Shown in pieces: positions 28,633 through 64,000 of a DNA stretch of 64,000 nt. Made by a program: the position numbers and the translations under genes. The notes under the pieces were generated by a model. That model saw only the letters and a list, made by a program, of their open reading frames with translations. It searched no databases and was not told the DNA's origin. The first letter of the stretch is position 1, and every line of letters begins with the position of its first letter. Source of the stretch: Candidatus Caldarchaeum sp. (lineage in GTDB: Archaea > Thermoproteota > Nitrososphaeria_A > Caldarchaeales > Caldarchaeaceae); NCBI GenBank assembly GCA_038885755.1, contig JAVZZH010000002.1, forward strand, positions 32,001 to 96,000. Direction: 5' to 3'.

Positions 28633-28635
28633 GAG

Positions 28636-29752: not shown

Positions 29753-29803
29753 CTAACCTCGCTTTATCAACGCAGCACCTGTATTTAAATAATCTGGGAA
29801 GTT

Positions 29804-35266: not shown

Positions 35267-35427
35267 TGTTGTAAAAATAATTTTCGTCGGCTTGTTAAAG
35301 CCTCTTCCGGCGAAGACTGATAGGATGACCGAATAATCTCTATAAATTTGTTTTAGACTATATGAGCCGGCGTCTGAAAATCGCGGATATGTGTGCCGAG
35401 GCTGTTGTAAAAATAATTTTCGTCGGC
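35267..35427 (+). repeat. Exact 25-bp direct repeat (35267-35291 and 35403-35427)
   Basis: TGTTGTAAAAATAATTTTCGTCGGC occurs twice, 136 bp apart; the second copy is within the moaD-like gene. Confidence 0.9.
35295..35351 (+). repeat. 57-bp block, copy 1 (promoter region of the moaD-aor-oah-had-dch operon)
   Basis: TTAAAGCCTCTTCCGGCGAAGACTGATAGGATGACCGAATAATCTCTATAAATTTGT; 52/57 identical to 42503-42559. Confidence 0.88.
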
Positions 35428-35811
35428 CCTTTACGGACTGCTTTCGGCAGCAGGGAGCTGACCCTCGCTGCAAGGGAGGGGGAGTCCGTCCGCCAGCTGC
35501 TCGTGAGGGTTGCGAGCGGGGCTGGCGGCAGGGGGGTTGAATATCTTTTGGATGAAAACCCAGAGCAGCTCGTCGTCTCTGTCGACGGAGAAGTGGTTAG
35601 AGACTTGGACAGGAAGCTTAGAGGCGGAGAAACCATCATATTGACTCCTGCTCTGTCAGGCGGCTCAAGCTACTCGGTGAGATGCTTAAACTGCTCGGCT
35701 AGAATACCTGTCCAGCAAGGGGTTTCGGAAGCGACCTGTAATAGCTGCGGCACAAGCTACACCATCACCTGGATATCTCCAACACAGCCGAAGATAAGAA
35801 GGGTTGTGTAA
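35362..35811 (+). CDS. MoaD/SAMP ubiquitin-like protein with internal di-Gly, fused to a C-terminal Zn ribbon
   Basis: VKIIFVGPLRTAFG...VVSVDGE...TPALSGG followed by CLNC-x15-CNSC; start 35362 or 35389. Confidence 0.82.
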   Translation: MSRRLKIADMCAEAVVKIIFVGPLRTAFGSRELTLAAREGESVRQLLVRVASGAGGRGVEYLLDENPEQLVVSVDGEVVRDLDRKLRGGETIILTPALSGGSSYSVRCLNCSARIPVQQGVSEATCNSCGTSYTITWISPTQPKIRRVV

Positions 35812-35813
35812 AC

Positions 35814-37703
35814 ATGAAACCCGGCCAGCTCGTGGCATATGTAGACCTGAGCCGAAAAAAGACGTCTGTAGAGCCTGTGCCGGAGCATTGGAGAAAACAT
35901 TTCTTAGGCGGCAGGGGCGTTAACACATACCTTCTCAGCACAATGATTGACGAACGCACAGACCCCCTAGGGCCGGAGAACCCGCTGATAGTAGGGGTGG
36001 GCTTGCTCACAGGGATTTCGGCGCTCGGCTCCGGTAGATGCAATATCTCAGCCCGTTCTCCGCTGACGGGCGCATTGGGCGACAGCAACATAGGCGGTCT
36101 CTTCGCAGCGACAATGCGTAGGACAGGTATAGACTTCTTAGTTGTGTCAGGCAGGGCTGAGAAACCAGTCAGAATACATCTTCACGATAGGAAGGTCATG
36201 ATAGTTGACGGCAGAGACCTTTGGGGCTTAGACTCTTTCGAAGCACAGGAAGAGATTAGAAAGGCAGAGGGTGGAGCCGTCCAGTCTCTGGTCATAGGAC
36301 AGGCAGGCGAAAACCTTGTCAGGTATGCATGTGTGAGAACTGGGAGGAAAAGCTCAGCCGGCAGAACCGGGATGGGCGCGGTTATGGGAAGCAAGAACCT
36401 TAAAGCCATCTCAGCCGTGGGAGACAGGCCGATAGAATGGTATGACACGGCGGCACTTCAAAGGTTTTGCAGAGAATTGATCGATAAAATCATGTCGACG
36501 AAATGGGCTAGGGCTCAATCGGTGCACGGGACAGCCGCCATATTCAACTATACATATCATACGGGGCTGCTTAGGGTTAGAAACTTCCAGACACAGGCGC
36601 TCCTCGACGTCGGAACGCTTGAGCCTGAGAACATCGAGCCATACAAAACAGGGATGTCTGGATGCTCCGCATGCAGCATCAAATGCAGACATGTCTATGA
36701 ACTTGATGATGGGCCCTATCCTCACAAAGGTGAGGGTCCTGAGTACAGCCAGATAGGAAGCTTCGGAACAATGGTTGGAATAAACAGGATTGAAGCAGTG
36801 ATGAACGCCTCATACCTCTGCAACAAATATGGGCTAGACACGATAGAGGTAGGCAACATGATCGCGTGGATTATGGAGCTTTACGAGAAAAACCTCATAC
36901 CCAAAAACCTGCTCGGCGACTTGAAACCGGAGTGGGGTAGTGAGGAGGCGGTTTACAGACTTGTAGAAATGATAGCTCTGCGTCAGGGTTTGGGCGACAT
37001 CCTCGCCGAGGGGATGAAAACAGCTATAACAATACTCGGCCAGGAAACAAGTCGCTACGCCCTCCACATAAAAGGCATGGGAATACTTCTCTCCGACGAC
37101 AGGCCCGTACCCAGCTTCGCCCTCGGGCTTGCTACAGCCACAAGGGGGGCAGACCATTTAAGAAGCAGGCCAGCCGTGGACCTGTACGGGCTGCCTAAAG
37201 AGCTTCTCACCAGCCTCTACGAAGGTGAGGTATCAACAGATTACACAGAGTATGAGGGTAAGAGTAGGATGGTCTGGTGGCATGAGCTCCAGTATGCTGT
37301 GGGTGATTCGCTGGGGCTTTGCAGGTTTCAGATGAAGTTTATCTCAGTCCACGCGCCTTCGTATGATGAGTGGGTAGAGTTGATAAAATATGCGACTGGG
37401 ATGGAAACCTCTAAACATGAGTTGATGATGACGGGCGAAAGGATACTGGCTGTTGAGAGGATGCTGAACAACAGGCTTGGCTTCAGCAGGAAAGACGACA
37501 CACTTCCTGAACGCTACTACATTGAACCAACAGTGGCTGGGATGCCAAAAACCAGAGGTAGAAAGATAGATAGGCAGAAGTTCGAGCAAATGCTTGATGA
37601 ATACTACAGTCTCCATGGCTGGGATGAAAACGGTGTTCCCAAAAGAGAGACGCTTGAAAGGCTCGGCCTCGTCGAACACCCTATCTATTCACAAGGTGTG
37701 TGA
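35814..37703 (+). CDS. aor: Tungsten-dependent aldehyde:ferredoxin oxidoreductase family
   Basis: FLGGRG, SPLTG, GQAGENLV, GRTGMGAVMGSKNLKA, CSACSIKC, EGPEY, GLDTI, RGADH, DDTLPER. Confidence 0.92.
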   Translation: MKPGQLVAYVDLSRKKTSVEPVPEHWRKHFLGGRGVNTYLLSTMIDERTDPLGPENPLIVGVGLLTGISALGSGRCNISARSPLTGALGDSNIGGLFAATMRRTGIDFLVVSGRAEKPVRIHLHDRKVMIVDGRDLWGLDSFEAQEEIRKAEGGAVQSLVIGQAGENLVRYACVRTGRKSSAGRTGMGAVMGSKNLKAISAVGDRPIEWYDTAALQRFCRELIDKIMSTKWARAQSVHGTAAIFNYTYHTGLLRVRNFQTQALLDVGTLEPENIEPYKTGMSGCSACSIKCRHVYELDDGPYPHKGEGPEYSQIGSFGTMVGINRIEAVMNASYLCNKYGLDTIEVGNMIAWIMELYEKNLIPKNLLGDLKPEWGSEEAVYRLVEMIALRQGLGDILAEGMKTAITILGQETSRYALHIKGMGILLSDDRPVPSFALGLATATRGADHLRSRPAVDLYGLPKELLTSLYEGEVSTDYTEYEGKSRMVWWHELQYAVGDSLGLCRFQMKFISVHAPSYDEWVELIKYATGMETSKHELMMTGERILAVERMLNNRLGFSRKDDTLPERYYIEPTVAGMPKTRGRKIDRQKFEQMLDEYYSLHGWDENGVPKRETLERLGLVEHPIYSQGV

Positions 37704-38644
37704 AAATGTCCGCAAAAGAGTATAAAGATATAGTCTACGACAGAAACTACCATACACATACTGCGCTTATTCAGATAAACAGGCCTGACGAATACAACTC
37801 CTACCTCCTCACTACTTTAAAGGAGATGATAGACGCTTTTGAAGACGCGATGTGGGATGATAACATACAGTTCATCGTTCTGTCAGGGGCTGGTGAGAAA
37901 GCCTTCTGCACGGGAGGCAACATCGGAGAGTACGCCGATATCTACAGCAAAAAGCCGTCAGACTGGTGGAAGTGGGGCGAGGTATACGGAAGGTTCCTAG
38001 ACATAATTCTCCACTGCGGCAAACCTGTCATCGCAAGAGTTAACGGCATGGTGGCTGGCGGCGGTTTCGAGTTTGTAGCCGCCTCCGACCTCGCCATAGC
38101 AGCACAGCATGCGAAGTTTCTCTCACCCGGGCCAAGGGTTGGAATGACCTCTATAGGCGGTCTTTCCCAGTGGCTTCCGCTCCACATAGGTCTGAAGAGA
38201 ACGGCTCAGCTCGTTATGACGAGCGAAGAGATAACGGCTCAAAAAGCTCTAGAATGGGGGATAGTGAACGACGTGGTGCCCCTCGAAAAGCTCGACGAAA
38301 GAGTTAAACAGCTTATAGACGTAATGCTCGACCTCTCCCCAACCAGCCTCCACTACTTCAAAGTACATCTAAACTGGTGGCGTGACCTTGTCTGGAAGCT
38401 CACATGGGAGCATGCTAAGGAATTCTTCTCACTGAACATCGGCGGCATCGAACCCGTGGAAGGGCTTCACGCCTTCAAAGAAAAGAGGAAGAGACGTTAC
38501 AGAGAAGTGAGAGACGACCTGGCTAAAGGCGTGGATCCAAGATACCCGCACGGCCCCTACATGCTTACGTGTAAAACATGCAACGCCAGATACCTGCCCC
38601 TCAACTCTGTTTACTGTCTAAAATGCGGGAGCAGGCTTGGGTGA
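37700..38644 (+). CDS. oah: 6-oxocyclohex-1-ene-1-carbonyl-CoA hydrolase (ring-opening; Oah/BamA/BzdY)
   Basis: NRP.EYNSY, KAFCTGGN..EYA..Y, KPVIARVNGM.AGGG, GPRVG; C-terminal PY..TC..C.A..LP....YC..CG typical of Oah. Confidence 0.85.
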   Translation: MKMSAKEYKDIVYDRNYHTHTALIQINRPDEYNSYLLTTLKEMIDAFEDAMWDDNIQFIVLSGAGEKAFCTGGNIGEYADIYSKKPSDWWKWGEVYGRFLDIILHCGKPVIARVNGMVAGGGFEFVAASDLAIAAQHAKFLSPGPRVGMTSIGGLSQWLPLHIGLKRTAQLVMTSEEITAQKALEWGIVNDVVPLEKLDERVKQLIDVMLDLSPTSLHYFKVHLNWWRDLVWKLTWEHAKEFFSLNIGGIEPVEGLHAFKEKRKRRYREVRDDLAKGVDPRYPHGPYMLTCKTCNARYLPLNSVYCLKCGSRLG

Positions 38645-38650
38645 GAGCGT

Positions 38651-39673: not shown

Positions 39674-39687
39674 GGGGCTGCATCGCC

Positions 39688-40464: not shown

Positions 40465-40567
40465 AGGTCTGTTCCGTTATCCGGCTCGGTTTTTAGACAA
40501 TATGATTCTCATGGTTTTTGGAAACGATTTCTGGAGAAATAAATAAAACCCCATACTTTCATTTACT

Positions 40568-41476
40568 ATGAAGCAGAAAGTAACTACTTTGAAACAGGCT
40601 GTTGAGACGTTTATCCAAGACGGATGCTCACTGGCCCTATGTCTGAGCTTAGAGCACGCCATCCCCTTCGCCGCCGTCCATGAAATAATAAGGCAGGGAA
40701 AGCGCAACCTCACCCTGATAGGCCCGATCTCTGACGCCGCCTTCGACCAGTTGGTTGGCGCAGGATGTGCTTCGAAGGTGATGGCTGCATGGGTAGGCAA
40801 CGTATCCTACGGCATTGGCTACTGCTTCAGCAGAGCATATGAGAAGGGGCGTGTAAAAATGATAGACTACTCCAACCTCAGCATCGCTTCAGCCATCTTG
40901 GCCGCCGCCCTTGGAATCCCGTTTATACCGACGAAAACGTTGATAGGCTCAGACATTCTTGAAGGGCTTGTGGCCGAAGGCTTGGCCAAGCTGTCTGAAT
41001 GCCCCTTCACCGGTGAGGTGGTTGTTCTTCTCAAAGCCGTCAAGCCTGACGTCGCGGTGGTCCACGTCCAGAGATGCGACGATAAAGGATATGCGCAAAT
41101 GTGGGGGAACCTCGGGATAGTTAGGGAGGCATGTCAGGCAGCCGATAAAGTGATGGTGACAACTGAGGAGGTGGTCGACCATGAAACCATAACCCTCGAC
41201 CCGAACTCCGTCATATGCCCGCCGTACAAAGTAGCTGCAGTCTGTCAGGTTAGATACGGAGCCCATCCATCCCCTCTGGCAGGATATTACAACAGAGACC
41301 ACAACTTTTTCAGAGAATACTACGAGATGAGCAAGACGCCGGAAGGTTTTAGGAAATGGCTGGAGAAATGGGTTCTGTCTGTCGGGAGCAGGGATGAATA
41401 CCTGAAGAATGTCGAGCTTGACAGAATCAGGGTTGCTAAACCTTTAGAGGCTGGGGCGAGGCTGTATGGCTACTGA
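40568..41476 (+). CDS. gctA: Family I CoA-transferase alpha subunit (glutaconate CoA-transferase-like)
   Basis: IPFAAVHEIIRQG, DQLVGAGC, GIPFIPT..LIGSD, PDVAVVHVQR.D..G, GAHPS...GYY.RD. Confidence 0.88.
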   Translation: MKQKVTTLKQAVETFIQDGCSLALCLSLEHAIPFAAVHEIIRQGKRNLTLIGPISDAAFDQLVGAGCASKVMAAWVGNVSYGIGYCFSRAYEKGRVKMIDYSNLSIASAILAAALGIPFIPTKTLIGSDILEGLVAEGLAKLSECPFTGEVVVLLKAVKPDVAVVHVQRCDDKGYAQMWGNLGIVREACQAADKVMVTTEEVVDHETITLDPNSVICPPYKVAAVCQVRYGAHPSPLAGYYNRDHNFFREYYEMSKTPEGFRKWLEKWVLSVGSRDEYLKNVELDRIRVAKPLEAGARLYGY

Positions 41477-42206
41477 CAGCTTCACAGCACGTGAGATGAT
41501 GGTGGTCTCGGCAGCCCGCATGATCAAGAACCGGGACATCGTTTTCGTCGGCATGCGTCTACCCTTGCTTGCCTTCAGTCTAGCCAAAAACCTATGGGCC
41601 GCTGAAGCAGTGGCACTGTATGAGGCTGGTATAATGCGGGAAAAACATTGCGGCGAATATGTTCACACAATGTGCGACCTACCTCTCCAGACGCAGGCTT
41701 CATGGCTTACGGGGCTTGTAGAAGTAATGTCCTGCCTTCAACGGGGTGAGGTGGATGTTGGAATAATAGGCGGAGCTCAGATAGACGTATGTGGAAACAT
41801 CAACAGCACCTTAGTGAAGACGGCAAGCGGTGTCAGAAGGTTGCCTGGAAGCGGAGGCGCATGCGACATCGCTGTTTTCGTAAAAAAACTAATCGTGATG
41901 ATGCCGCTGGAGTCTAGGAGACTGGCCTCGAAGGTCGACTACATAACATCCCCCTCTGTCTGCGGTAGAAATGGACGGAAACAGTTCAAGGACATCTACT
42001 TGGTCACGGACAAAACGGTGCTTTCGGTGGATGGCTCAAAATTTACAGTCGTCGCGCGTTATCGTGGGGTTAGCATAGAAGACATCATGGACCATGTGGG
42101 CGGACTAGTTACAGAACTGGCTGAAGCCCCTATTCAGCAGCCACCTACAGAAGAAGAGCTTAAAACGTTAAGAGCATTGGACAGAGAAGGATTTTGGACA
42201 CGTTAA
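41466..42206 (+). CDS. gctB: Family I CoA-transferase beta subunit
   Basis: EMMVVSAAR, FVGMRLP, LYEAG (catalytic Glu), GGAQID..GNINST, RLPGSGGACDIA, VDYITSP. Confidence 0.88.
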   Translation: MATDSFTAREMMVVSAARMIKNRDIVFVGMRLPLLAFSLAKNLWAAEAVALYEAGIMREKHCGEYVHTMCDLPLQTQASWLTGLVEVMSCLQRGEVDVGIIGGAQIDVCGNINSTLVKTASGVRRLPGSGGACDIAVFVKKLIVMMPLESRRLASKVDYITSPSVCGRNGRKQFKDIYLVTDKTVLSVDGSKFTVVARYRGVSIEDIMDHVGGLVTELAEAPIQQPPTEEELKTLRALDREGFWTR

Positions 42207-42502
42207 TCAAATAGCGGCAGACGGGCAGCTGGCAACCATCGCGTCATCCCTTAAAGAGAAGGTTCAGAGCTTCCAGCGGAGAAGTGGAGAGGGAGGTGGG
42301 GATAGCGGAGGTTGAGCTCATGGGCAGGAGAGGGGGACTGACACTGAGCTTTGGAGAGAAAGAGAGAGAAACAGCATTCTAACTGAAAGATAGGACAAAG
42401 AGGCTGGAAAAACATAGCAGCTGGATAACGCTAATACACAACACGTCAATAAAGTTAACAGTAACGACGTGTTCAACGAACATTGGACGACCCGTCCAGC
42501 GT

Positions 42503-42608
42503 TTAAAGCCTTTTTCGGCGAAGATGGATAGGATGACCGAATAATTTCTATAAATTTGTCGCCATAACTGGAGGGTTGAACATCTTTCGGATGAAAACCC
42601 AGAGCAGC
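42503..42608 (+). repeat. Deleted duplicate of the moaD-operon promoter and an internal moaD segment
   Basis: 42503-42559 matches 35295-35351 (52/57); 42573-42608 matches 35534-35569 (34/36). Confidence 0.85.
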
Positions 42609-42656
42609 CCAGACGGTCGTATTCCAGACACTATCTTCATGTTGTTTAACCACTTG

Positions 42657-43826
42657 TCAATCGAACATAATCGATTCAGCGAATGTTTCAAGCATTGTTC
42701 TCACATGTTCAAAGCTTGATGTAGACTCCTCGTATTCGAGATGCAGGTAGGGGATGTTGTGTTCGTCTAAAACGGTCTTGTATATCATGTAGTCGTAGAG
42801 CGCTGGCTCGCAGAACTTGGGAGTTATGAAGACGACGCCTTCAGCCTTAGTTGCTTTAACAAGCTTAAGAATGTAGCTATGTTTGTCGACTGAGGGGTTG
42901 TATCTGACGGTTAATGGCTCCTGTTGTTTGACATAGGCTTGAGCTAAAGTTCTTAAGGGGTTTTCACCATCTTTTACCTCTATCTCGCCTATCCACCGAG
43001 CTCCTATCAAAACCTCGTCCGAGACGATGTAGCATCCCGCGTCCTCGATTGTCTTCATGAACATTAAAGGAGGTTGTTCGCAGAAGTCGCCCATAACGAT
43101 AACTCTCACTCTGTCCGCGGGCCTTACCTCTCTTGAACGAACTTCGTCCAAAAACCTCTCTAAGAGCGGGAGGTATTTTTCGACGGGCATGAACTGGCCG
43201 GCTCTCACCGCCAAATAGTATTCATGATAGGGTAGGAGCCAAGGTTTTTCGCGTCTCAGCTCGTTAAGGATGTTAAGCATCCTTCTCTTCTTGTTGTAGA
43301 GCTTGATCGCCTCCACCAGCTTCTCTTGCTCGAACTTTTTCCCCGAAACTCTTTCAAGACCTTCGACGATCCTTCTATAGTCTTGCTCAAGATAAGTTAT
43401 CGCGCTCTCGGAAACGTTGTTGATGGGGTAGTGGATGTAATCCATGTGGATTTTGTCGCCGAAGTTGCGCATCATTATGCCGGAAAGGTTTCGTGCAACG
43501 TCGCATATATTGGAGAATATCAGGGCGTCAAAGACGTTGAGCAGCCCTTGGGCAGCTAGCTGGAAAACGCTTTTTGTTATGCTGCAGACAAATGACTGGG
43601 TGTGGGCTGTCGCTATGTCGAGGGGGAGTCTACCAGAAGCTCCTAAGAGGTTGATGGGGATCATGTTAAGAACATGGGCAAGCTCCTCTGGAAAGTAGAC
43701 GGGGAAATAGCCAAGGGCTTTCCAGCCTAGCCTTCGCCTCCACTCCCTTACATGGTTAAACGTTGTGTAGGAATCTTCTACGACTTCCTCGAAGGTTTGG
43801 ATTGTTTCTTGCTTGGCTTCTGTCAA
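42657..43826 (-). CDS. bcrC: Class I benzoyl-CoA reductase subunit C (BcrC/BadD type)
   Basis: GYFPVYFPEEL, QSFVCSI, ICDVARNLSG, GDFCEQPPL, GCYIV.D, EGVVF..PKFCEPAL, TFAESI. Confidence 0.88.
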   Translation of the reverse strand: MTEAKQETIQTFEEVVEDSYTTFNHVREWRRRLGWKALGYFPVYFPEELAHVLNMIPINLLGASGRLPLDIATAHTQSFVCSITKSVFQLAAQGLLNVFDALIFSNICDVARNLSGIMMRNFGDKIHMDYIHYPINNVSESAITYLEQDYRRIVEGLERVSGKKFEQEKLVEAIKLYNKKRRMLNILNELRREKPWLLPYHEYYLAVRAGQFMPVEKYLPLLERFLDEVRSREVRPADRVRVIVMGDFCEQPPLMFMKTIEDAGCYIVSDEVLIGARWIGEIEVKDGENPLRTLAQAYVKQQEPLTVRYNPSVDKHSYILKLVKATKAEGVVFITPKFCEPALYDYMIYKTVLDEHNIPYLHLEYEESTSSFEHVRTMLETFAESIMFD

Positions 43827-44623
43827 CCTGCTTGATACCCCCTTTTCTTCATCAGCCTTCTAAAGCCTAGCACAGCAGCTCCTACTGCGCCTGCGTAAAA
43901 GAGCTGGGGTGAAACATTTGGCTTAAGGTTTAGTTTTTCTTCCAACACCTTGGGTATCGCTGGGTTTAGAACGAGCCCGCCTGTTATGGTTAGCTCAGGC
44001 TCCACCCCGATCTGTTTCAATGTGACCAGCACTCTTCCAGCCACGGATAGGTGGGCCCCCATCAAAATATCTTCCAATGGAACCTCCTGCGTCATCAGGT
44101 TTATCACCTCTGACTCGGCGAAGACCGAGCACACGGTTGATATCGGGACAGGGTTTTTGGATGAGAGGGCGATGACACCTATATCGGCTACGTCGAACCC
44201 AGTATAGTATGCGATTTTCTCTAGGAAGCCTCCACCTCCCGCCGCACATTTCTCAGTAGACCTGAACTTGACGACCTTCCCCTTCTCATCTACCTTAGCG
44301 GCTCTAGAGTTTCCAGCGCCTATGTCCAAGACTGATTTTGTTCCGGGGTAGAAGAACTTTGCACCCCTACTGTTTGCAGTTATGTCCGTCACGTTTATGT
44401 CTCTAAAGTCCACCCTGTATCTTCCAAAGCCTGTGGCCACAATGTATTCGACGTCTCCGCTTCTAAGGCCTAACTCGTTGAGCGAGGCGTTGAAGAGCTG
44501 CTTGGCCGTGTTGTTGAAGTCGAAGGATGTTTTAGCAGTTTTCGTCAAAAGAATTTTCCCACCGTCCTCTATGAAAGCTATCTTGGTGTTTCTTGTTCCA
44601 ACATCTATTCCAACGGTGATCAT
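43823..44623 (-). CDS. bcrD: Benzoyl-CoA reductase ATP-binding electron-activation subunit (BcrD/BzdP-like)
   Basis: MITVGIDVG (ATG 44623), ATGFGR, LDIGAG, KCAAGGGGFLE.IA.Y, STVCSVFAESEVIN, ITGG. Confidence 0.82.
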   Translation of the reverse strand: MITVGIDVGTRNTKIAFIEDGGKILLTKTAKTSFDFNNTAKQLFNASLNELGLRSGDVEYIVATGFGRYRVDFRDINVTDITANSRGAKFFYPGTKSVLDIGAGNSRAAKVDEKGKVVKFRSTEKCAAGGGGFLEKIAYYTGFDVADIGVIALSSKNPVPISTVCSVFAESEVINLMTQEVPLEDILMGAHLSVAGRVLVTLKQIGVEPELTITGGLVLNPAIPKVLEEKLNLKPNVSPQLFYAGAVGAAVLGFRRLMKKRGYQAG

Positions 44624-44624
44624 T

Positions 44625-45440: not shown

Positions 45441-45442
45441 TT

Positions 45443-46726: not shown

Positions 46727-46781
46727 CGATGTCTATGCCGGCGTTTCAATTATATACTTTCGGACTAATTTCTATAAATTA

Positions 46782-55282: not shown

Positions 55283-55330
55283 GTCAAGGCACTATATGTT
55301 TGATGATAGCTTATATTATTTTAATTCTAT

Positions 55331-56404
55331 TTATATAGATTCCAAACTCAAAACAGTCCCCAACGGCTGAGTCCTCAACGGGCTGAGTATCCTGTTGGCG
55401 GCCGCGTCGGCTATGGCGATGCTGTAGCCAGCTATCCTCCTTATGTCTCTAAGTATGAAGAGAAGGGTCATCGCCTGCTCGATGTCTTTCACACTGTGTA
55501 TTATGTCTAGGCTGAGCCTCTCCTCGTAGAATTTCACGTCCTGTATAAGGTTGCTGACCCTCATGACGCTGTTGAAGTCTTTGTCTATGAAGGCTTCAAT
55601 CGCACGCTGCTGCATGAACTGAACCATTTCAGACAAAGGGACTATCTGAGGAAGCATCTTCAAGACAGTTATCCTACGGCCAAGCCTGATGAGATTCTTC
55701 GATATGTAGAGGGCGTGGTAGAATATTCTATGCAGGTCTCTGGCCAGCAGCACATACGTTATCAGCTCGTTGCTGTCCCTAATCCCGCAACAGTAAGCTA
55801 TCTCGGGGTTCATGCTGCTCAACGACAGATGCCTAATCAGCTTACGGTAGATCCTCAGCATGTCCGGCTCACGGTTCGTAACCTCCAGCGCAAGCCTTAG
55901 GTTGTTTTCAGTAAGAGCGCGGATAGAATCCCTGTGGGTGTGGAGCGCCATGTCATGTATAGTTAGCACAATGTCGTCGATTTTCTCCTTCACAACGTCT
56001 GTGATAACGCTGTAAACAACTTTGTTGGAGTCTTCATGGCTTATCTCTACACCCGGCATCTCAAGCCTCATCTCCCTGAGCTTCTTCTTTTTGTCCGACG
56101 ACATCGGACGGGACGATTTCACGATGAGCGTGTAGGCGCCCTGCATGTAGTATGTTAGAAGACAGTATCTAACCGACCGCGTGTCGTCAAACCTGTCCAA
56201 ATCTATTTCAACAGTCTTCTTCATCTTAGGCGAATCTTTGAAGGACAAACGGAGGGAGTAGCCGTCCTCCACCGTGAACAGCCTCGCACCCTTTTCAACC
56301 TCATACTTGTCCACCCACCACTTGGGTAGAGTTACTGTATAGCTGCCTCCCCTGATCAGCTGTAGGACGCGGAGGCCAGGTCTGTGGGGAACAACCCTGC
56401 CCAT
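55331..56404 (-). CDS. AbrB + PhoU-like domain transcriptional regulator (divergent from paaK)
   Basis: RVLQLIRGGSYTVTLPKWWV, YYMQGA, RDL.R..YH, RDIRRIAGYSIAIAD.AANR. Confidence 0.86.
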   Translation of the reverse strand: MGRVVPHRPGLRVLQLIRGGSYTVTLPKWWVDKYEVEKGARLFTVEDGYSLRLSFKDSPKMKKTVEIDLDRFDDTRSVRYCLLTYYMQGAYTLIVKSSRPMSSDKKKKLREMRLEMPGVEISHEDSNKVVYSVITDVVKEKIDDIVLTIHDMALHTHRDSIRALTENNLRLALEVTNREPDMLRIYRKLIRHLSLSSMNPEIAYCCGIRDSNELITYVLLARDLHRIFYHALYISKNLIRLGRRITVLKMLPQIVPLSEMVQFMQQRAIEAFIDKDFNSVMRVSNLIQDVKFYEERLSLDIIHSVKDIEQAMTLLFILRDIRRIAGYSIAIADAAANRILSPLRTQPLGTVLSLESI

Positions 56405-57915: not shown

Positions 57916-57916
57916 C

Positions 57917-58099: not shown

Positions 58100-58193
58100 A
58101 CAGATAAAGTTGAGCTACAAGCATACTTGGCTGTAGCAAAAATATATAATTTGCCTAAAAAGTTTATCAAACTTTAGACCGATAAACCGTCTC

Positions 58194-59675
58194 GTGGCTG
58201 AAAAAGAAAAAACCGGTGTTGACAGACGTTCCTTCCTCAAATATGCTGCCACAGCTGGAATCGCCGCCGTAGTCGCAGGAGCTGCGGGATACTTCTCCGC
58301 ATCCACGCAAACCGAGGTAATAACCAAGACAATCCCAGCTGGAGAGGTGACGAGAACAGTCACCGTCGGCGGACAGACGGTTACCGTCGGCGGCGCAACC
58401 GTCACGCAGACCCGAACAGTAACTGTTACAGCAACACCTACCCCGCCGGCTCCGAGACCGCCTCCTGGAAAGACCGAGGTTAGGATTGGGGTGCTGGCCC
58501 CGCTGGCAGCTCGTGAGGGAAAGGTTCAGGAGAACGCCGCCCGCCTAGCAATCGAAGAAATCAACGCTAAAGGTGGGATACTTGGTCTCCCGGTAAAACT
58601 CGTGGTAGCCGACGACAAGCTCAGCGCCGACACCGCTGTAGCAGAGTTTAGACGATTGGTGACGGCTGAGAAAGTCGACGTGATGATAGGCGGTTACTCA
58701 AGCGGCGTGATGACAGCCACTATGGAGCCTATGGCGGAGTTAAAGACCATATTCCTAGCGGACGCTTCATCACCGGCTCACGCCAGAAAAGTTGGAGCCA
58801 ACTATGACAAATACAAGTATTGGTTTAGGATAACCCAGAACAACGGCATAACCTTCGCCCTCGACGGAATCACGCAGATCGAATACCTTGCTGCAAACGG
58901 CGTCAAAATCGAAAAGCTGTACATAATAAGAGACGAGCATATATGGGTTGATGAATGGGAGCCCATGCTTACGGATCTGCTGAAGCAGAAGAACATCGAA
59001 GTAGTCAAGAGTGTTAAGATACCGCGAGGATACACGGAGTACGAGCCTCTTCTTATAGAGGCAAATAGGCTCGGTGCTCAAGCAGTATTCAACATGCTGG
59101 CTATCTCTGGGACAGGCGACGTGCTGGCAAAGCAGTGGGGCACGCTCAAGCTTCCGCTGCTTCTGATGGGCCATGACTTGGCCGCCATAGACCTTGGGTT
59201 CTGGGAGAAGACGGGAGGTGCTTGCGAGTACGAGATTTTCATGGCTGACGGAGGAGTTGTCCAGACAGCACCTCCAACTCAGATGTGCAGACAATTCATA
59301 GAGAACTATACAAAGAAGTATGGGTATCCGCCTGAGGCCCATCAAGGCTACGGAGCATATGATGCAGTCTACCTGTACAAAAAGGTGGTTGAGGAGGCTG
59401 CTGCCGCAGGTGAGAGCAACCCGTTTGATTCAGACACACTGGTTAAATACCTCGAGAGGTACACGCTCGGAAACGCTATTGAGCTGACGAGGAAGGTGGC
59501 GTTCTATCCTAAGGGCGCGTGGGGGGCTGACGGGACGAGATGGGACCACGACCTAGTCTGGGGGGATGAATACGTGAAGAACTGGGTGTCGCAATGGCAG
59601 GCTGGAAAACAATATTTGCTTGCGCCGTCTTGGCTCAAAAACGCAGACCTAAAACTACCGCCATGGTTCAAATAA
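58194..59675 (+). CDS. livK: Tat-exported HAAT (Liv-type) ABC substrate-binding protein, probably for aromatic acids
   Basis: DRRSFLK Tat signal, T/V/P-rich linker, LAIEEINAKGGILG, GGYSS, YWFR, AYDAVY. Confidence 0.88.
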   Translation: MAEKEKTGVDRRSFLKYAATAGIAAVVAGAAGYFSASTQTEVITKTIPAGEVTRTVTVGGQTVTVGGATVTQTRTVTVTATPTPPAPRPPPGKTEVRIGVLAPLAAREGKVQENAARLAIEEINAKGGILGLPVKLVVADDKLSADTAVAEFRRLVTAEKVDVMIGGYSSGVMTATMEPMAELKTIFLADASSPAHARKVGANYDKYKYWFRITQNNGITFALDGITQIEYLAANGVKIEKLYIIRDEHIWVDEWEPMLTDLLKQKNIEVVKSVKIPRGYTEYEPLLIEANRLGAQAVFNMLAISGTGDVLAKQWGTLKLPLLLMGHDLAAIDLGFWEKTGGACEYEIFMADGGVVQTAPPTQMCRQFIENYTKKYGYPPEAHQGYGAYDAVYLYKKVVEEAAAAGESNPFDSDTLVKYLERYTLGNAIELTRKVAFYPKGAWGADGTRWDHDLVWGDEYVKNWVSQWQAGKQYLLAPSWLKNADLKLPPWFK

Positions 59676-59722
59676 GCTCCTAATTTTTTTAACAATAGCA
59701 TACGCTGTTGACGGTGCGGTAG

Positions 59723-60589
59723 ATGATAGGTATTGAAAACTTCATCGTCCTACTTGTTTACGGCGCGACCCTGAGCGGTGTATGGGCCCTGATGTCGTCT
59801 GGGTTTACGTTGATTTTCGGAGTCTGCAGACTTCTCAACCTTGCCCACGGAGGCCTGTTCATAGCAGGCGCCTACATCGGCCTATCGCTTGTCAGAAGCC
59901 TGGGACTCGACCCGTTAAGCTCCACGGTTTTGAGCATGCTGGCTGTTGGTGTTATTGGGGCAGGTGTTTACATAGGCTTGCTTGCAAAAGTTAAGGAGCA
60001 TGAGGTAACAGTAGTGATCATAACTCTTGCCCTAGCCCTCATAATAGAGCAGGTCATTCTGATCATGTTTGGAGAGCATGGGATAAACTTCCCACCCATA
60101 TTGGCTGGCGTGGTGTACTTGGGTGATGTACCGCTTCCAGCCATCAGGATTTTCGGGTTGGCTGTGGCCTTAGCTGCTCTTCTTCTTCTAGGGCTGTTTG
60201 TCTCCAGAACAAGGATAGGAAAAGAGATTACGGCTGCGTCGCAGGACATAGAAGCAGCTACCTTCATCGGATTAGACGTGCATAGACTGTTTATCATAAC
60301 GATGTTCATATCATCCATTCTAGCAGGTTTGGGCGGTGTTCTATACTCTCAGATATACGCGGCTAACCCGTTTCTGGTTGTGAAAGCGCTGATATTCGCG
60401 TTTGCCATCGTGATTTTGGGAGGTCTTGGAAGCGTCAAAGGAAGCATCGTAGCCTCGTTCATCATAGGATACATAATGACAGCTGTCATCATGTTTCTGG
60501 GGGCGAGATGGTCGGAGCTTTTCGCCCTGCTGATAATCATAGCCGTTCTGATAATACGGCCTTCAGGGCTTTTCGGTGTAAAGGAATGA
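59723..60589 (+). CDS. livH: HAAT ABC permease (LivH-like)
   Basis: GFTLIFGV...LNLAHG, RTRIGK...A.SQD, FAIVILGGLGS, RPSGLFG. Confidence 0.9.
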   Translation: MIGIENFIVLLVYGATLSGVWALMSSGFTLIFGVCRLLNLAHGGLFIAGAYIGLSLVRSLGLDPLSSTVLSMLAVGVIGAGVYIGLLAKVKEHEVTVVIITLALALIIEQVILIMFGEHGINFPPILAGVVYLGDVPLPAIRIFGLAVALAALLLLGLFVSRTRIGKEITAASQDIEAATFIGLDVHRLFIITMFISSILAGLGGVLYSQIYAANPFLVVKALIFAFAIVILGGLGSVKGSIVASFIIGYIMTAVIMFLGARWSELFALLIIIAVLIIRPSGLFGVKE

Positions 60590-61593
60590 TGAGAAACAGG
60601 TTTGTTGGAGACGCTGTCGGCGTAGCTGTCTTGGCTGGCCTGTTGGCGTCAGCACCTCTGTACATCCCTGAAGCCTTGATCTGGATATTGGGTATGTCAT
60701 TTCTCTTCATAGTCATAGCTCTGAGCTGGGACTTGGCGACAGGCTACGCTGGTCAGATTAACCTTGGGTTGACCAGCTTCGTCGGCTTAGGGGCCTACAC
60801 CTCAGCACTGCTTCAGGTAACGAGCAGGCTTAGAGGAACACCTTTCGAGTTTCTAGCAGGCCAGCCGACCGTTCCAGTAGAGTTGACGCTGCCAGCCGGC
60901 GGCGTAGCTTCGGCGTTGGTTGGCGCTGCGATAGGAGGTGTGACACTCAGGCTTAAAGGATGGTACCTAGCTTTGGTTACCGCTATTCTCCCAATAGCTT
61001 TCGTCCAAAGCACGTATGTGTGGAAAGATGTTTTCGGGGGCGAGGAAGGCTTCACACTGCCAACCGGTCTCGCCCCAACACCCATAGGCAAATACTACAT
61101 AGCTCTAGTGATCATGTTGCTGTCGCTGGCCACGATGCTTTTGATAACTAGGAGCAGGCTTTCTCTGAGGCTGAGGGCTTTGAGGGATGAACCTGAGCTG
61201 GCGGAATCCATAGGACTTGATACGGTGAAGCTGAAGGTCCTCGCCTTCACAGTAAGCTCTTTCTTCTCAGGCATAGCCGGAGCGGCCATAGTTAACTACA
61301 GGCAGGTGGCCAACAACGACCTATACGACGTGCCTTTGATGCTTTTGGTAATACTTGCGGTTGTCATAGGCGGTGCTGGGACGATGTGGGGCCCGGTCGT
61401 CGGCGGCTTCCTAGTTTATACTATGAAGTTCTGGTGGCTGAAGGGTGTTGTATACGAGCTGGCCAGCTCTACAGGGCTGCCCATCAACGACGACGTAATA
61501 CTATACACAGTACTCATAGTGTTAGCGATATTGGCGCCAAAAGGTTTATGGGCTGTGCTAGGCGAAAATATTTCAAAGAAGCTGAGACGTTAG
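60586..61593 (+). CDS. livM: HAAT ABC permease (LivM-like)
   Basis: GYAGQINLG, LRLKGWYLALVT, GGEEG, LRALRDE, VIGGAGT..GPVVG; ATGA overlap with livH at 60586. Confidence 0.9.
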   Translation: MMRNRFVGDAVGVAVLAGLLASAPLYIPEALIWILGMSFLFIVIALSWDLATGYAGQINLGLTSFVGLGAYTSALLQVTSRLRGTPFEFLAGQPTVPVELTLPAGGVASALVGAAIGGVTLRLKGWYLALVTAILPIAFVQSTYVWKDVFGGEEGFTLPTGLAPTPIGKYYIALVIMLLSLATMLLITRSRLSLRLRALRDEPELAESIGLDTVKLKVLAFTVSSFFSGIAGAAIVNYRQVANNDLYDVPLMLLVILAVVIGGAGTMWGPVVGGFLVYTMKFWWLKGVVYELASSTGLPINDDVILYTVLIVLAILAPKGLWAVLGENISKKLRR

Positions 61594-61594
61594 G

Positions 61595-62296
61595 TCATAT
61601 CTTTTCGAGATAATAGTTTTCGAGACCTCTGATGTTGGAGGCGGGCCCGCTCTCAACTATCTCGCCCTTAATCAGAAGGCTCACTTCATCAGCCAGCTCC
61701 AAAGCTAAGCGGATGTTCTGTTCAACGAGGAGGATAGATGTGTCTGAGCTGTTTTGGATTGTTTTTATGGCATCCCTTATCCTCATAAGCACTATAGGAG
61801 CTATGCCGTGAGAGGGCTCGTCCAACATCAGGAGCTTTGGCTTGCTCATCAAAGCCCTGCCTATAGCCGTCATCTGCTGCTCGCCGCCGCTGGTCAGCCT
61901 AGACAAGGTGTTTCTCCTCCTTTTGATCTCGGGAAACAGGCTGTAGACAAGCTCAAGCTGGTCGTCGCAGTCTTTCGACACCGCTCCCAGCTTAAGGTTT
62001 TCTTCAACAGTCATGTATGGGAAAAGCTTACGCCCCTCAGGGCATATCGAAATCCCCATACGTATCCTCTGGTGCGGCTTGTACTTTGACAGGTCCTCGT
62101 TTTCAAAGGATATTTTCCCCGTCGTGTGAACTGTTCCCACCACTGCTTTAAGCAAAGTTGTTTTCCCAGCTCCGTTTGGCCCAAGAACCGCGACGGTTTC
62201 GCCGTTTCCTACTTTCATGTTTATGTTTCTTAAAACCTCCGCTTTGTCGTAGTACGCCCTTAAGTTCTTGATCTCAAGAACCGTCATAGCCAACAC
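61595..62296 (-). CDS. livF: HAAT ABC ATP-binding protein (LivF-like)
   Basis: GPNGAGKT, PEGRKLF, SGGEQQM, LLMLDEPS, LLVEQN. Confidence 0.92.
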   Translation of the reverse strand: MLAMTVLEIKNLRAYYDKAEVLRNINMKVGNGETVAVLGPNGAGKTTLLKAVVGTVHTTGKISFENEDLSKYKPHQRIRMGISICPEGRKLFPYMTVEENLKLGAVSKDCDDQLELVYSLFPEIKRRRNTLSRLTSGGEQQMTAIGRALMSKPKLLMLDEPSHGIAPIVLMRIRDAIKTIQNSSDTSILLVEQNIRLALELADEVSLLIKGEIVESGPASNIRGLENYYLEKI

Positions 62297-62960
62297 CTAG
62301 GTATGCTTCAACAACCTTTCTGTCTTCAACAACCTCTTGAGGGCTGCCCTCGCAGATAAGCCGGCCGTAGTTAAGAACTAGAACGCGGCTCACATGGTTA
62401 AAAAGCTCCCGCAGCTTGTGCTCGACGATCACCATCGTAAGACCGTTCCTCCTGAGCTTTTCTATGACTAGCCCCAGCTCAACACCCTCTCTTGGGCTCA
62501 GCCCTGAGAAAGGCTCGTCCAACAGAAGAAGCTTTGGCCTCGCCGCCAAAGCCATTGCAATGCTCAGTCTCCTAAGGTCTCCCTGCGGCAAATCTCTAAC
62601 GGAAAAGTTTTTTCTATCTGACAGCCCTATCTCTTCAACCAGCCAGTCTACGTTGTCGTTCACAACCGACAGGCTTTCCAACACCGTCATGGTTTTAAAG
62701 GTCTTTATGACTTGGAAGGTCCTTGCTATGCCACGTTTAACCAGCTCGTGGGGAGGCTTTCCCGTCACGTCCACGCCCATAAACTCCACCCTTCCCGCGT
62801 TAGGCTTCATAAAACCTGATATGATGTTGAACAGTGTTGTTTTCCCAGCGCCGTTAGGCCCTATTATTCCCACGCACTCTCCCTGCCTGACTTCAAAGCT
62901 GACGCCGCTCAACGCTGTTAGCTCGCCGAACTTTTTCGTGACGTTAACGACCCGCAGCAT
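62274..62960 (-). CDS. livG: HAAT ABC ATP-binding protein (LivG-like)
   Basis: GPNGAGKTT, GIARTFQ, LLLDEP, IVEH, VVEAYLG. Confidence 0.92.
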   Translation of the reverse strand: MLRVVNVTKKFGELTALSGVSFEVRQGECVGIIGPNGAGKTTLFNIISGFMKPNAGRVEFMGVDVTGKPPHELVKRGIARTFQVIKTFKTMTVLESLSVVNDNVDWLVEEIGLSDRKNFSVRDLPQGDLRRLSIAMALAARPKLLLLDEPFSGLSPREGVELGLVIEKLRRNGLTMVIVEHKLRELFNHVSRVLVLNYGRLICEGSPQEVVEDRKVVEAYLGVGYDGS

Positions 62961-63025
62961 ACAACAACCTTCTTAAATACGTCGGTGGATAATATAATAT
63001 ATTACCGTGAATTTATAGAGAAAAC

Positions 63026-64000
63026 CTAACTATGGGGTTGTTGAGAAGAAATGTCAAGCGATGTTTTAGGGCCTAAAGTCCTGTTGGCAGCTATGTCAGC
63101 CATCGCAACAGCGTATCCAGCAACCCTCCTAAGCTCCCTACCAATCATCATGGCTATGACCGCTTTGCCCGTCTCCCTCACGGTTTGAAGAACATGCATG
63201 TTTAACTCTTCATCCAACTGCCTAACCTTCTCCATACTCTTAACAACTGAGAAAATCTTATTCATGTCTTTTTCAAGAAAAGCGTCAACAGCCTGTCTGC
63301 TCATCTGGTGAGCTGCATCCGACATCTGCTGGATGATTTCCAGAAGTTGCTTGTCATCCAAAGGCCTGCCGTATCTCGTGAAATGTCTGGCGACGTAGAG
63401 GCTGTGGTAAACAGACCTGTTCAAATCTCTTGCCAAAACAGCGTATGTTATCAGCTCTCTGCTGTTGCTTATCCCGCTCTTGTAAGCTGTTTCAGGGTTC
63501 ATGCTGCATAGAGCTATCTGTCTTATGACACGGCGGTAAATCCTCAGAAGCTCCGGCTCACGGCCAACCACCTCAGAGGCCATCTCAACATCGCCGTTCA
63601 AAACAGATTTGACAGCGTCTTGCTGGATGGCTAATGCCGTGCTATGCATCGACCTTATGACCGAGTCGAGCGGGACGTCGTCAAACTCCCCTGCCACAAC
63701 ATATGTTATAGAGCGTTCATCCTCTTTCGCTATGTCTATACCCTGCAAATCCATCCTAAGCTCACGGAGTCTGCGTTTTTTCTCCAAAGTTATGGGGCTG
63801 GAGGACTTCACCGTAATCTCGTCAGCCCCCTGCATGTAGTATGTCCAGACCGTGTAGATCGCATGCTGGGGATCCTCCATCTGGTCAAGGTCTATCACCG
63901 CGGTTTTCTTCGCACGCAAAGCCGCCGTCGATGTTATCTTCAGCGATTGGCCGTCTTCAGCTAGGATTAGCTTGGAGCCTTTTTTGAGGCGTTGTTTATC
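63026..64000 (-). CDS. AbrB + PhoU-like regulator, paralog of 55331-56404 (5' end outside window)
   Basis: Frame open to the window edge; shares YYMQGA, REP..LRIYR..IR, SMNPE.AY, ELITY..LARDL and RR.AGY..A.AD.AANR with the 55.3 kb gene. Confidence 0.86.
   Translation of the reverse strand, partial: DKQRLKKGSKLILAEDGQSLKITSTAALRAKKTAVIDLDQMEDPQHAIYTVWTYYMQGADEITVKSSSPITLEKKRRLRELRMDLQGIDIAKEDERSITYVVAGEFDDVPLDSVIRSMHSTALAIQQDAVKSVLNGDVEMASEVVGREPELLRIYRRVIRQIALCSMNPETAYKSGISNSRELITYAVLARDLNRSVYHSLYVARHFTRYGRPLDDKQLLEIIQQMSDAAHQMSRQAVDAFLEKDMNKIFSVVKSMEKVRQLDEELNMHVLQTVRETGKAVIAMMIGRELRRVAGYAVAMADIAANRTLGPKTSLDISSQQPHS

Follow-up and report, generated by a model that had tools for sequence, protein, structure and literature searches.

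The DNA examined here, referred to as the window, is a stretch of 64,000 nt from Candidatus Caldarchaeum sp. (Nitrososphaerota, Candidatus Caldarchaeales; assembly GCA_038885755.1, contig JAVZZH010000002.1, positions 32,001-96,000, forward strand). The genome that holds it (G000) amounts to 1.33 Mb in 10 contigs and is 86.5% complete, and the contig carrying the window (C2) is 256 kb long. Between 35362 and 64000 the window is filled, nearly without gaps, by open reading frames (ORFs) of the expected sizes, all of them intact, which a preliminary description had read as an island of genes for anaerobic phenylacetate and benzoyl-CoA degradation in a Caldarchaeales-like archaeon. We assigned families by Pfam and NCBIfam matches on the ORFs and structural relatives by scores against the PDB. 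The island was confirmed at this position, each gene class listed in that description being found in its place in a long ORF with strong Pfam or NCBIfam matches (Table 1). The description was also right about what the window lacks, namely a free ferredoxin, a beta-oxidation set and glutaryl-CoA dehydrogenase; one conserved island gene, encoding a metallo-beta-lactamase (MBL)-fold hydrolase, was not on its list. The island extends about 8 kb beyond the window end with an HTH_10 regulator, a tRNA-Ala, FdhD, two MoeA proteins, one of which carries a fused binding-protein domain, and a rhodanese. In all, three putative regulators accompany the island, together with the Mo/W-cofactor maturation genes FdhD, both MoeA and rhodanese.

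Table 1. Genes and promoter-like segments of the island, in window numbering
Feature	Position	Strand	Basis or remark
Promoter-like segment with TATA-like box	35308..35351	+	Precedes the MoaD-AOR-Oah-Had-Dch-CoA-transferase genes; three copies in all, nearly identical
MoaD/ThiS-like small protein, 149 aa	35362..35811	+	Pfam ThiS, 28.5 bits; beside AOR also in G006-G008
Tungsten-type aldehyde:ferredoxin oxidoreductase (AOR), 629 aa	35814..37703	+	Pfam AFOR_N, AFOR_C
Oah-like ring-opening crotonase, 314 aa, short form	37700..38644	+	Best NCBIfam match Oah, TIGR03200
Had-like Zn-dependent alcohol dehydrogenase, 340 aa	38651..39673	+	Best NCBIfam match Had, TIGR03201
Dch-like dienoyl-CoA hydratase, 258 aa	39688..40464	+	Best NCBIfam match Dch, TIGR03189
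Two-subunit CoA-transferase, 302 + 246 aa, glutaconate-CoA-transferase type	40568..42206	+	Pfam CoA_trans in both subunits; PDB GctA 1poi, 139 bits
Second copy of promoter-like segment	42503..42559	+	Inside a 450-bp gap
BcrC-like subunit, 389 aa	42657..43826	-	TIGR02263, 268 bits; Pfam PF06050
BcrD-like ATPase subunit, 288 aa	43823..44689	-	Pfam BcrAD_BadFG; TIGR00241 203 bits, BcrD 161 bits
BcrA-like ATPase subunit, 271 aa	44625..45440	-	Pfam BcrAD_BadFG; TIGR00241 263 bits, BcrA 193 bits
BcrB-like catalytic subunit, 427 aa	45443..46726	-	TIGR02260, 308 bits; Pfam PF06050
MBL-fold metallo-hydrolase, 306 aa	46782..47702	-	Pfam Lactamase_B
Three-gene 2-oxoacid:ferredoxin oxidoreductase (OFOR): gamma-delta fusion 296 aa, alpha 418 aa, beta 303 aa	47871..50918	+	Pfam POR, Fer4, POR_N, PFOR_II, TPP_enzyme_C
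PadD-like membrane anchor, 258 aa	51151..51927	-	Pfam NrfD/DmsC; after PadC in relatives
PadC-like four-cluster Fe-S subunit, 212 aa	51924..52562	-	Pfam Fer4_11 and others; NCBIfam DsrO/TtrB-like
PadB-like molybdopterin subunit, 907 aa	52559..55282	-	Pfam Molybdopterin, Molydop_binding, Fe4S4 domain
PhoU-domain protein, 357 aa, putative regulator	55331..56404	-	Pfam PhoU in two stretches; beside PadB/PaaK in relatives
Phenylacetate-CoA ligase, PaaK type, 444 aa	56581..57915	+	TIGR02155, 417 bits
Liv-type importer: binding protein	58194-59675	+	Pfam Peripla_BP_6
Liv-type importer: two permeases	59723-60589, 60508-61593	+	Pfam BPD_transp_2 in both
Liv-type importer: two ATPases	61595-62296, 62274-62960	-	Pfam ABC_tran in both
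Second PhoU-domain protein, 365 aa in full	63026->64000	-	Runs beyond the window end

The nearest homologues of the BcrB-like protein (93% identity) and of the Mo subunit (90-93%) are encoded in metagenome-assembled genomes (MAGs) titled Candidatus Caldarchaeum sp., with an 80% homologue in a MAG titled Ca. Caldarchaeum subterraneum. Together with the lineage record, they place the host, as the preliminary description had supposed, in Caldarchaeales and not in Archaeoglobales. In the comparisons that follow, a bona fide reference is a MAG protein that scores above its NCBIfam equivalog cut-off; no characterised Thauera, Aromatoleum or Ferroglobus sequence is among these references.

The four genes at 42657-46726 carry PF06050 twice and PF01869 twice, the composition of a four-subunit class I benzoyl-CoA reductase (BCR) operon. 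The 2-hydroxyacyl-CoA dehydratases (HAD; Clostridioides HadBC/HadI, PDB 3o3m) and the double-cubane cluster proteins belong to the same superfamily, defined by the Pfam domains HGD-D and BcrAD_BadFG, and the preliminary description had made a grouping with these dehydratases a point on which its assignment would fall. BCR models were nonetheless the best specific NCBIfam matches for both catalytic subunits: the BcrB-like protein scored 308 bits for BcrB against 185 for HadB and 111 for BzdO, and the BcrC-like protein 268 for BcrC against 196 for HadC and 101 for BzdN. Among solved structures the nearest were subunits of 3-methylbenzoyl-CoA reductase (MBR), namely MbdO for the BcrB-like protein (240 bits; HadB 144, BzdO 109) and MbdN for the BcrC-like protein (238 bits; HadC 154, BzdN 101).

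Reference sequences for the trees of the BcrB-like protein were three BcrB scoring above the TIGR02260 cut-off, whose genomes encode PadB as well, three BzdO-like sequences of Rhodocyclales MAGs, and a HadB-type pair taken from Fusobacterium and Proteus records, which scores 439 and 503 bits for the HadB model versus 97-105 for BcrB. In a quick tree of 70 rows, the window protein fell into a clade of 64 (single support value 97) together with the three bona fide BcrB, with the HadB-type and BzdO-type proteins and an Azoarcus plasmid homologue outside. In a careful tree of 32 rows, the HadB-type pair lies across a long branch (100/100), and the BzdO-like rows are set off by a very long one. The window protein forms a clade of its own there (100/100) with proteins of Caldarchaeum, of two further MAGs (G009, titled Nitrososphaerales archaeon, and G010, titled only 'bacterium') and of metagenomes, and this clade is sister (88/82) to one whose members are named Thorarchaeota, Heimdallarchaeota and Thermoplasmatota.

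Cluster cysteines C99, C133 and C370 are conserved in the BcrB-like protein. Its BcrC-like partner has C81, C108, C249, C265 and C339 in common with bona fide BcrC, whereas a HAD beta subunit keeps three of these five and lacks C249 and C265. In the catalytic subunits the three Cys ligands are the same in both families. The available part of PMC11971306 describes six cysteines around the [8Fe-9S] cluster in BzdN, and three plus a water molecule in BzdO; a sixth, BzdN-type cysteine was not found in the BcrC-like protein in the cysteine alignment. Comparison with Glu65 and His131 of BzdO was partial, as the local alignment starts after Glu65; the His131 position is Tyr in the window protein and Phe in MbdO. 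Both ATPase subunits are of the standard activase type, and the BcrA-like one matches only positions 216-431 of the BcrA model, its C-terminal half. Scores and trees thus side with Thauera-type BCR on the question posed by the preliminary description. Judged by its sequence, the enzyme is predicted to work like, and to descend with, the Thauera/MBR-type class I reductases, as an uncharacterised archaeal subclade in which no subunit reaches its cut-off.

The molybdoenzyme at 51151-55282 has the three subunits expected of PadBCD, namely a Mo-bisPGD subunit of about 100 kDa, an Fe-S protein and a membrane anchor; its proteins of 907, 212 and 258 aa carry Molybdopterin, Fer4_11 and NrfD/DmsC domains, respectively. 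Its Mo subunit is far from solved Mo enzymes (ArrA 105 bits, PsrA/PhsA 83 bits). A very large family with the JGI name phenylacetyl-CoA:acceptor oxidoreductase matches it from end to end at about 60% identity, and relatives are encoded in at least 593 of 600 pattern-matched stretches (one genome per species). The most informative comparison was with L069, the PadB locus of a Rhodocyclaceae MAG, where the neighbours of PadB exceed the equivalog cut-offs for PadE (327>300), PadF (155>150), PadG (760>700), PadH (629>475) and PadI (836>700). L069 is a canonical padBCDEFGHI cluster of the Thauera/Aromatoleum group, and its PadB and PadC are 55% (full length) and 52% identical to the window proteins; across bacterial loci the PadC-like subunit shows 45-62% identity to PadC. 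Since the Fe4S4 domain of the PadB-like protein begins at residue 5, the protein carries no export signal. The subunit sizes, the NrfD/DmsC-type anchor and the missing signal peptide would fit a quinone-linked enzyme whose active site faces the cytoplasm, where CoA esters are located; we infer that a cytoplasm-facing catalytic subunit is a defining feature of PadBCD. The identity to a canonical cluster and the JGI family name, together with subunit sizes, anchor type and orientation, lead us to regard the enzyme as a PadBCD orthologue with a predicted catalytic activity, in agreement with the preliminary description, which had called it PadBCD-like. Only one other molybdopterin enzyme is encoded in G000.

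An alignment of 21 family members at the PadB-like N-terminus revealed a first Fe-S motif in which C11, C14 and C50 are invariant. An equally invariant Pro18-Asp19 replaces the third cysteine that is usual in the motif of related Mo enzymes. This suggests that the whole PadB family may have an unusual ligand set for the first cluster.

For the three ring-opening proteins we took as references the Oah (636>464), Had (555>339) and Dch (381>292) of L071, a locus of a Xanthobacteraceae MAG, and built a careful crotonase tree of 28 rows, a small sampling that included E. coli MenB, PaaF and PaaG and the genome's generic crotonases, without BadI. The Dch-like protein, for which TIGR03189 was the best of 73 families, joined bona fide Dch together with its orthologues at 100/100, leaving out the generic crotonases of the genome. 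The Oah-like group, orthologues included, joined bona fide Oah at 98/93; the sister group was a MenB clade including E. coli MenB, with PaaF and PaaG further away. The preliminary description had named a fall of Oah and Dch among generic crotonases as a second way in which it could fail, and both proteins stand apart from these. Had was the best match of the alcohol dehydrogenase, 16 bits above the generic alcohol dehydrogenase model, and the protein is 38% identical to bona fide Had.

The phenylacetate-CoA ligase is 39-44% identical to PaaK genes beside bacterial PadB. PaaA and PaaC of the aerobic phenylacetate route were not found in the 86.5%-complete genome, so the aerobic route does not offer an alternative use for PaaK here. 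The OFOR is a different case. Its best NCBIfam match was PorA_Arch (367 bits, cut-off 550), archaeal PorA/PorB models ranked first, and its scores for the bacterial phenylglyoxylate enzyme were low (PadG 281/700, PadI 132/700, PadE 69/300, PadF 59/150). It is not a member of PadEFGHI; it may nevertheless work like a phenylglyoxylate:acceptor oxidoreductase, because in relatives it is placed between the PadCD and Bcr genes, in G009 and G010 inside the same operon. As the enzyme consists of three genes without PadH, ferredoxin rather than NAD is its likely acceptor.

In L006, L007 and L030 an orthologue of the MBL-fold hydrolase separates the Bcr genes from those of the OFOR, and the gene is conserved in archaeal clusters only. 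In the PDB it matched only generic or uncharacterised MBL hydrolases; its nearest Atlas cluster is auto-named hydroxyacylglutathione hydrolase, which we treat as a lead only. The known phenylacetate route includes hydrolysis of phenylglyoxylyl-CoA to phenylglyoxylate, according to the accessible part of PMC9765128. Given this step and the conservation in archaeal clusters, a thioesterase role of the MBL hydrolase is a reasonable idea.

The AOR is nearest to P. furiosus AOR (1aor, 340 bits; five other AOR/FOR structures 223-318 bits) and is a candidate for the conversion of phenylacetaldehyde to phenylacetate. We considered and rejected its identification as a BamB-type class II reductase, BamB (4z3w) scoring 167 bits over partial length. 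We likewise discarded the idea that a 111-aa ORF in the gap after BcrC encodes a ferredoxin or small subunit; its sequence is of low complexity and matches no family, and the gap holds a repeat copy.

To judge how far these genes belong together, we compared 80 PadB loci from other species. Many of these loci are cut by contig ends and the linkage counts are lower bounds: within the fetched flank, a BcrB- or BcrC-like gene lies near PadB in at least 26 of 80 loci and PaaK in at least 31. The same genes are syntenic in three other, separately assembled Caldarchaeum MAGs (G006, G007 and G008) on contigs of 25-104 kb. In G009 and G010 they form a compact block in the order PhoU-Oah-Had-Dch-PadC-PadD-MBL-OFOR-BcrBADC-PadB; both PadB and BcrB of G010 group with Nitrososphaerota rows in the trees. 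Synteny in three Caldarchaeum MAGs and a compact operon in two further ones argue that the block is no chance grouping.

We consider it likely that these genes make up an accessory catabolic island through which a Candidatus Caldarchaeum-like archaeon would degrade phenylacetate, independently of oxygen, as far as an opened ring, with phenylalanine-derived phenylacetaldehyde probably serving as a further entry substrate. All pathway steps are read from homology and gene order. The substrate would be imported by the Liv-type ABC system, phenylacetaldehyde would be oxidized to phenylacetate by the tungsten-type AOR with reduction of ferredoxin, and PaaK would form phenylacetyl-CoA. The membrane-anchored, cytoplasm-facing PadBCD-type enzyme would oxidize the alpha carbon to give phenylglyoxylate, passing the electrons to quinone. 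The POR-like OFOR, in place of bacterial PadEFGHI, is predicted to convert phenylglyoxylate by decarboxylation to benzoyl-CoA and to reduce ferredoxin, which the ATP-dependent class I BCR of the Thauera/MBR lineage would spend in forming the dienoyl-CoA. Hydration by the Dch-like, oxidation by the Had-like and hydrolytic opening by the short Oah-like protein would lead to 3-hydroxypimeloyl-CoA, to be carried onward by beta-oxidation enzymes encoded elsewhere in the genome. We found there six acyl-CoA dehydrogenases, a fused 3-hydroxyacyl-CoA dehydrogenase/hydratase and thiolases. An acyl-CoA dehydrogenase 12 kb past the window reached 174 bits versus 470 for the Desulfococcus-type glutaryl-CoA dehydrogenase model and was not assigned to that function.

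Several observations weigh against this proposal. None of the key proteins reaches its equivalog cut-off, neither the reductase subunits (BcrB 308/487, BcrC 268/421, BcrA 193/578 with TIGR02259, BcrD 161/313 with TIGR02261) nor the ring-opening proteins (Dch 178/292.5, Had 248/339, Oah 157/464), and PaaK also stays below (TIGR02155 417/646 over full length; haloarchaeal PaaK model 399/700, next family 212). In the careful tree the basal branching is unresolved, and the window BcrB clade lies outside that of bona fide BcrB. The Oah-like protein of 314 aa aligns to Oah over its N-terminal ~180 residues only (residues 20-199, model positions 37-216 of 360, short of full length), with MenB (145 bits) and BadI (140 bits) close behind, and the split that separates Had in a tree of 13 rows is weak (71/89). 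Archaeal pyruvate synthase outscores PadG as a match of the OFOR, which also has no PadH gene, and no ferredoxin gene was found within the island. G007 carries a gene for a 312-aa 3-hydroxyacyl-CoA dehydrogenase between the CoA-transferase and BcrC (L096:14583-15521, L096 being the G007 locus); this gene is absent from the corresponding place in the window, 42206-42657, and the best match elsewhere in the genome, at 34%, is the fused enzyme on contig C1. Finally, a haem-copper oxidase subunit I is encoded in the genome, so the organism is not a strict anaerobe. Class I ATP-dependent reductases occur in facultative bacteria according to the available text of PMC11971306, and the pattern here is the same; the quinol produced by PadBCD needs a respiratory acceptor.

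Among other explanations, one is that the island performs the same chemistry on another arylacetate or aryl acid, such as 4-hydroxyphenylacetate, indoleacetate or a substituted benzoyl-CoA, with an MBR-like reductase of substituted benzoyl-CoA in place of a plain benzoyl-CoA reductase. It draws on the MbdO and MbdN structures as nearest solved relatives, on the position of the window BcrB clade outside that of BcrB above the cut-off, on the sub-threshold PaaK, and on an importer binding protein for which the bacterial loci gave no counterpart at the thresholds used. We nevertheless regard it as unlikely: PadB is 55% identical to that of a canonical pad cluster, a PaaK-type ligase recurs beside PadB, models of phenylacetate and benzoyl-CoA metabolism were the best NCBIfam matches throughout, and the island showed no additional enzymes that would act on ring substituents.

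It also seems improbable that the four-subunit enzyme is some other radical enzyme of the BCR/HAD family, such as a dehydratase or a reductase of a non-aromatic or unknown CoA ester, with the crotonases and the dehydrogenase serving ordinary or alicyclic beta-oxidation. The missed cut-offs of all four subunits would be accommodated by such a role, as would the MenB and BadI scores near that of Oah for the Oah-like protein. A 93%-identical protein is publicly annotated '2-hydroxyacyl-CoA dehydratase family protein', and a Caldarchaeales pangenome paper, in its available part, read the activase as amino-acid fermentation. Against this stand the long branch that separates HadB-type proteins, the 70-120 bits by which HadB/HadC models and structures fall below the BCR ones, the two BCR-type extra cysteines of the BcrC-like protein that the HAD beta subunit lacks, and a gene order that links PadBCD, OFOR and the Dch/Had/Oah relatives in several phyla. 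To an assembly or binning artefact with bacterial DNA on an archaeal contig, or to a decaying, non-working remnant, we give hardly any weight: the lower G+C of the island, the public contig that starts near a repeat at its left edge in a branching graph and the one missing gene of a relative's island are outweighed by intact ORFs, a 256-kb contig with archaeal housekeeping genes on both sides, similar flank and island depth in two runs that are possibly source samples, the island contigs of three other Caldarchaeum MAGs, and the separate archaeal clades of PadB and BcrB.

Within the phenylacetate reading, one could go further and propose that thermophilic Nitrososphaerota, namely Caldarchaeaceae and the lineage of G009 and G010, own a distinct, self-contained archaeal phenylacetate pathway in which a POR-type OFOR and AOR directly supply an archaeal clade of the reductase with ferredoxin, a short Oah opens the ring, and the MBL hydrolase acts as phenylglyoxylyl-CoA thioesterase. 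This is conceivable, yet we lean against it at present. If true, Caldarchaeum-type archaea would degrade aromatic amino-acid carbon in hot springs and provide a source of thermostable class I reductase.

In its order of reactions and its enzyme families, the proposed pathway follows the route of Thauera aromatica and Aromatoleum (PadJ, PadBCD, PadEFGHI, BcrCBAD, Dch, Had, Oah). As in the Thauera lineage, the reductase has four subunits and is of the ATP-dependent type, and relatives of Dch, Oah and the MDR-type Had are present. The pathway departs from these bacteria in its POR/VOR-like OFOR, which consists of three genes and lacks PadH, in a BcrA that matches the model without its N-terminal half, in a short Oah of 314 aa, in an MBL-fold hydrolase confined to archaeal clusters, and in the position of all genes in one archaeal island. 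A related layout occurs in bacterial loci of Rokubacteria/Methylomirabilota (L013-L045), where a PadBCD set lies between pairs of Bcr genes of a Thauera-lineage reductase, often with OFOR, PaaK and Dch. BcrB/C of these loci are 37-45% and PadB 57-60% identical to the window proteins; their genes are ordered differently and include neither MBL nor AOR.

Ferroglobus placidus, a member of the Archaeoglobales that we compared by description only, is likewise an archaeon with an ATP-dependent class I reductase together with Dch, Had and Oah. Its enzymes have been assayed, and its reductase is of the Azoarcus/BZD type; work by Schmid et al. in 2015 and by Aklujkar et al. in 2014 is said to cover its benzoyl-CoA pathway and its degradation of aromatic amino acids. 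To our knowledge, anaerobic dearomatisation by an archaeon has been demonstrated biochemically in Ferroglobus only. The present host belongs to another phylum and its enzyme is far from the BzdO-type rows, a difference that sets our trees against a general description of Ferroglobus rather than its sequences.

Genes of the benzoyl-CoA pathway, for class I BCR and ring cleavage, have been predicted in MAGs of anaerobic methanotrophic (ANME) archaea (PMC10581246), Hermodarchaeota (PMC8163825) and Thermoplasmatota (PMC9239135), as far as the available parts of these papers go. The island described here differs from these predictions in that a phenylacetate module (PaaK, PadBCD and OFOR), a reductase and ring-opening genes occur together in a thermophilic Caldarchaeales host. 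We found no paper that links Caldarchaeales, Aigarchaeota or Caldarchaeum with benzoyl-CoA or phenylacetate degradation, in a search that left subscription journals mostly uncovered. In the accessible part of PMC12806544, bcrABCD appears in a figure legend only; the usual picture of Caldarchaeales in the available text of PMC10547907 and PMC9246946 is one of users of hydrogen, CO, sugars or amino acids, the latter paper treating, in that portion, tungsten AORs only. On present sequence evidence, the island would be a known pathway in a new archaeal lineage, with some parts substituted, and no new kind of enzyme, pathway or system. With a syntenic island that leads from phenylacetate to ring cleavage in several genomes, aromatic carbon joins the likely diet of Caldarchaeum, the linkage of PadBCD and BCR genes spans both domains, and thermophilic versions of PadBCD and class I BCR, both hard to study, become available for biochemistry.

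The island is patchily distributed. The Mo subunit was matched in 10 of 76 genomes of the order (E<=1e-50); orthologues with at least 75% identity occur in six genomes, G000 included, which all belong to one family, the other four carrying paralogues of 32-37% identity. Two same-genus genomes that are 99% complete, in 1 and 4 contigs, lack the island. In a PadB tree of 81 rows, seven Nitrososphaerota-type rows formed one group (single support value 100), with Pseudomonadota and Chloroflexota in one group each. G+C is 0.48-0.55 in the island, compared with 0.55-0.58 upstream, ~0.55-0.57 from 8-10 kb past the window end, and 0.53-0.57 for whole contigs. A tRNA-Ala(TGC) is encoded at L002:3590-3664, where L002 denotes a stretch reaching past the window end (L002:9631-9668 equals C2:103631-103668), between the HTH_10 regulator and FdhD. 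It adjoins the HTH_10 end of the island also in G006 and G007 and is thus a possible integration site. No simple empty site was recognized when the flanks were sought in four island-free same-genus genomes; in the one-contig genome they lie within ~45 kb of each other but rearranged. Taken together, the patchy distribution, the tRNA-Ala at the edge and the archaeal grouping of PadB show that the island is accessory and has been transferred or lost in the past, with no recent bacterial donor visible. The horizontal acquisition suggested in the preliminary description therefore holds in part: distribution, the G+C dip and the edge tRNA favour it, whereas the archaeal PadB and BcrB form clades of their own and do not point to a donor. 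A second tRNA, tRNA-Met(CAT) at L002:12419-12493, follows the last island gene at a distance of ~3 kb; four relatives without the island have it at 97-99% identity.

Ordinary chromosomal genes occupy the first 13 kb of the window, among them those for MoaA, cytochrome b, UbiA, aspartate carbamoyltransferase and isocitrate/isopropylmalate dehydrogenase. Depth was similar in two hot-spring runs (X1: flank 10-18, island 15; X2: flank 15-22, island 16), which lends weak support to the contig since both may be source samples. With housekeeping genes around the island and the same island in three other Caldarchaeum MAGs, a chimeric contig, raised as a possibility in the preliminary description, is unlikely. 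The seven public runs that hold the stretch, from 3 studies and with 6 possibly source samples, are all hot-spring DNA, with no RNA run among them.

A 30,369-bp public (Logan) contig starts at window position 35154, close to a 301-bp repeat, which indicates a branching of the assembly graph at the island's left edge. The repeat (34705-35005) lies inside a 188-aa ORF (34677-35243, minus strand) and has a 99% copy at C2:176243-176542; the adjoining 180 bp recur on C1 at 88% identity. In public contigs the repeat reaches a depth of ~180-207, compared with ~15 for the island; it is a repeated gene fragment of unknown family.

The promoter-like segment of 38-57 nt with a TATA-like box occurs in a third copy at L002:9631-9668, ~7.6 kb past the window end, besides the two in Table 1, and its 19-nt core is found exactly three times in the 1.33-Mb genome, each time within the island. 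In relatives, the Rhod-MoaD intergenic region carries just one copy, upstream of MoaD and diverged in sequence. This region is split in G000, one part preceding MoaD and the other following Rhod, so the FdhD-MoeA-MoeA-Rhod block has been relocated to the opposite end of the island with duplication of the junction. We had also considered the 19-nt motif as a conserved operator; with one diverged copy in relatives this is unsupported, and the three copies here mark points of rearrangement.

Beyond the right-hand copy, L002:9729-12392 encodes a 295-aa protein without Pfam match, followed by an ABC-2-type exporter (ATPase and permease). At 28000-30000 in the window, public contigs match with 6-13 mismatches per piece at a depth of 60-190, while the island reaches only ~15; since the upstream flank exceeds the island in depth, a more abundant close relative in the same springs may lack the island. 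Further upstream, the chromosome carries a gene of the arylmalonate-decarboxylase/Asp-Glu-racemase family (8528-9226, minus strand) and a hydantoinase A/B pair (1969-5612, minus strand) with no evident link to the island.

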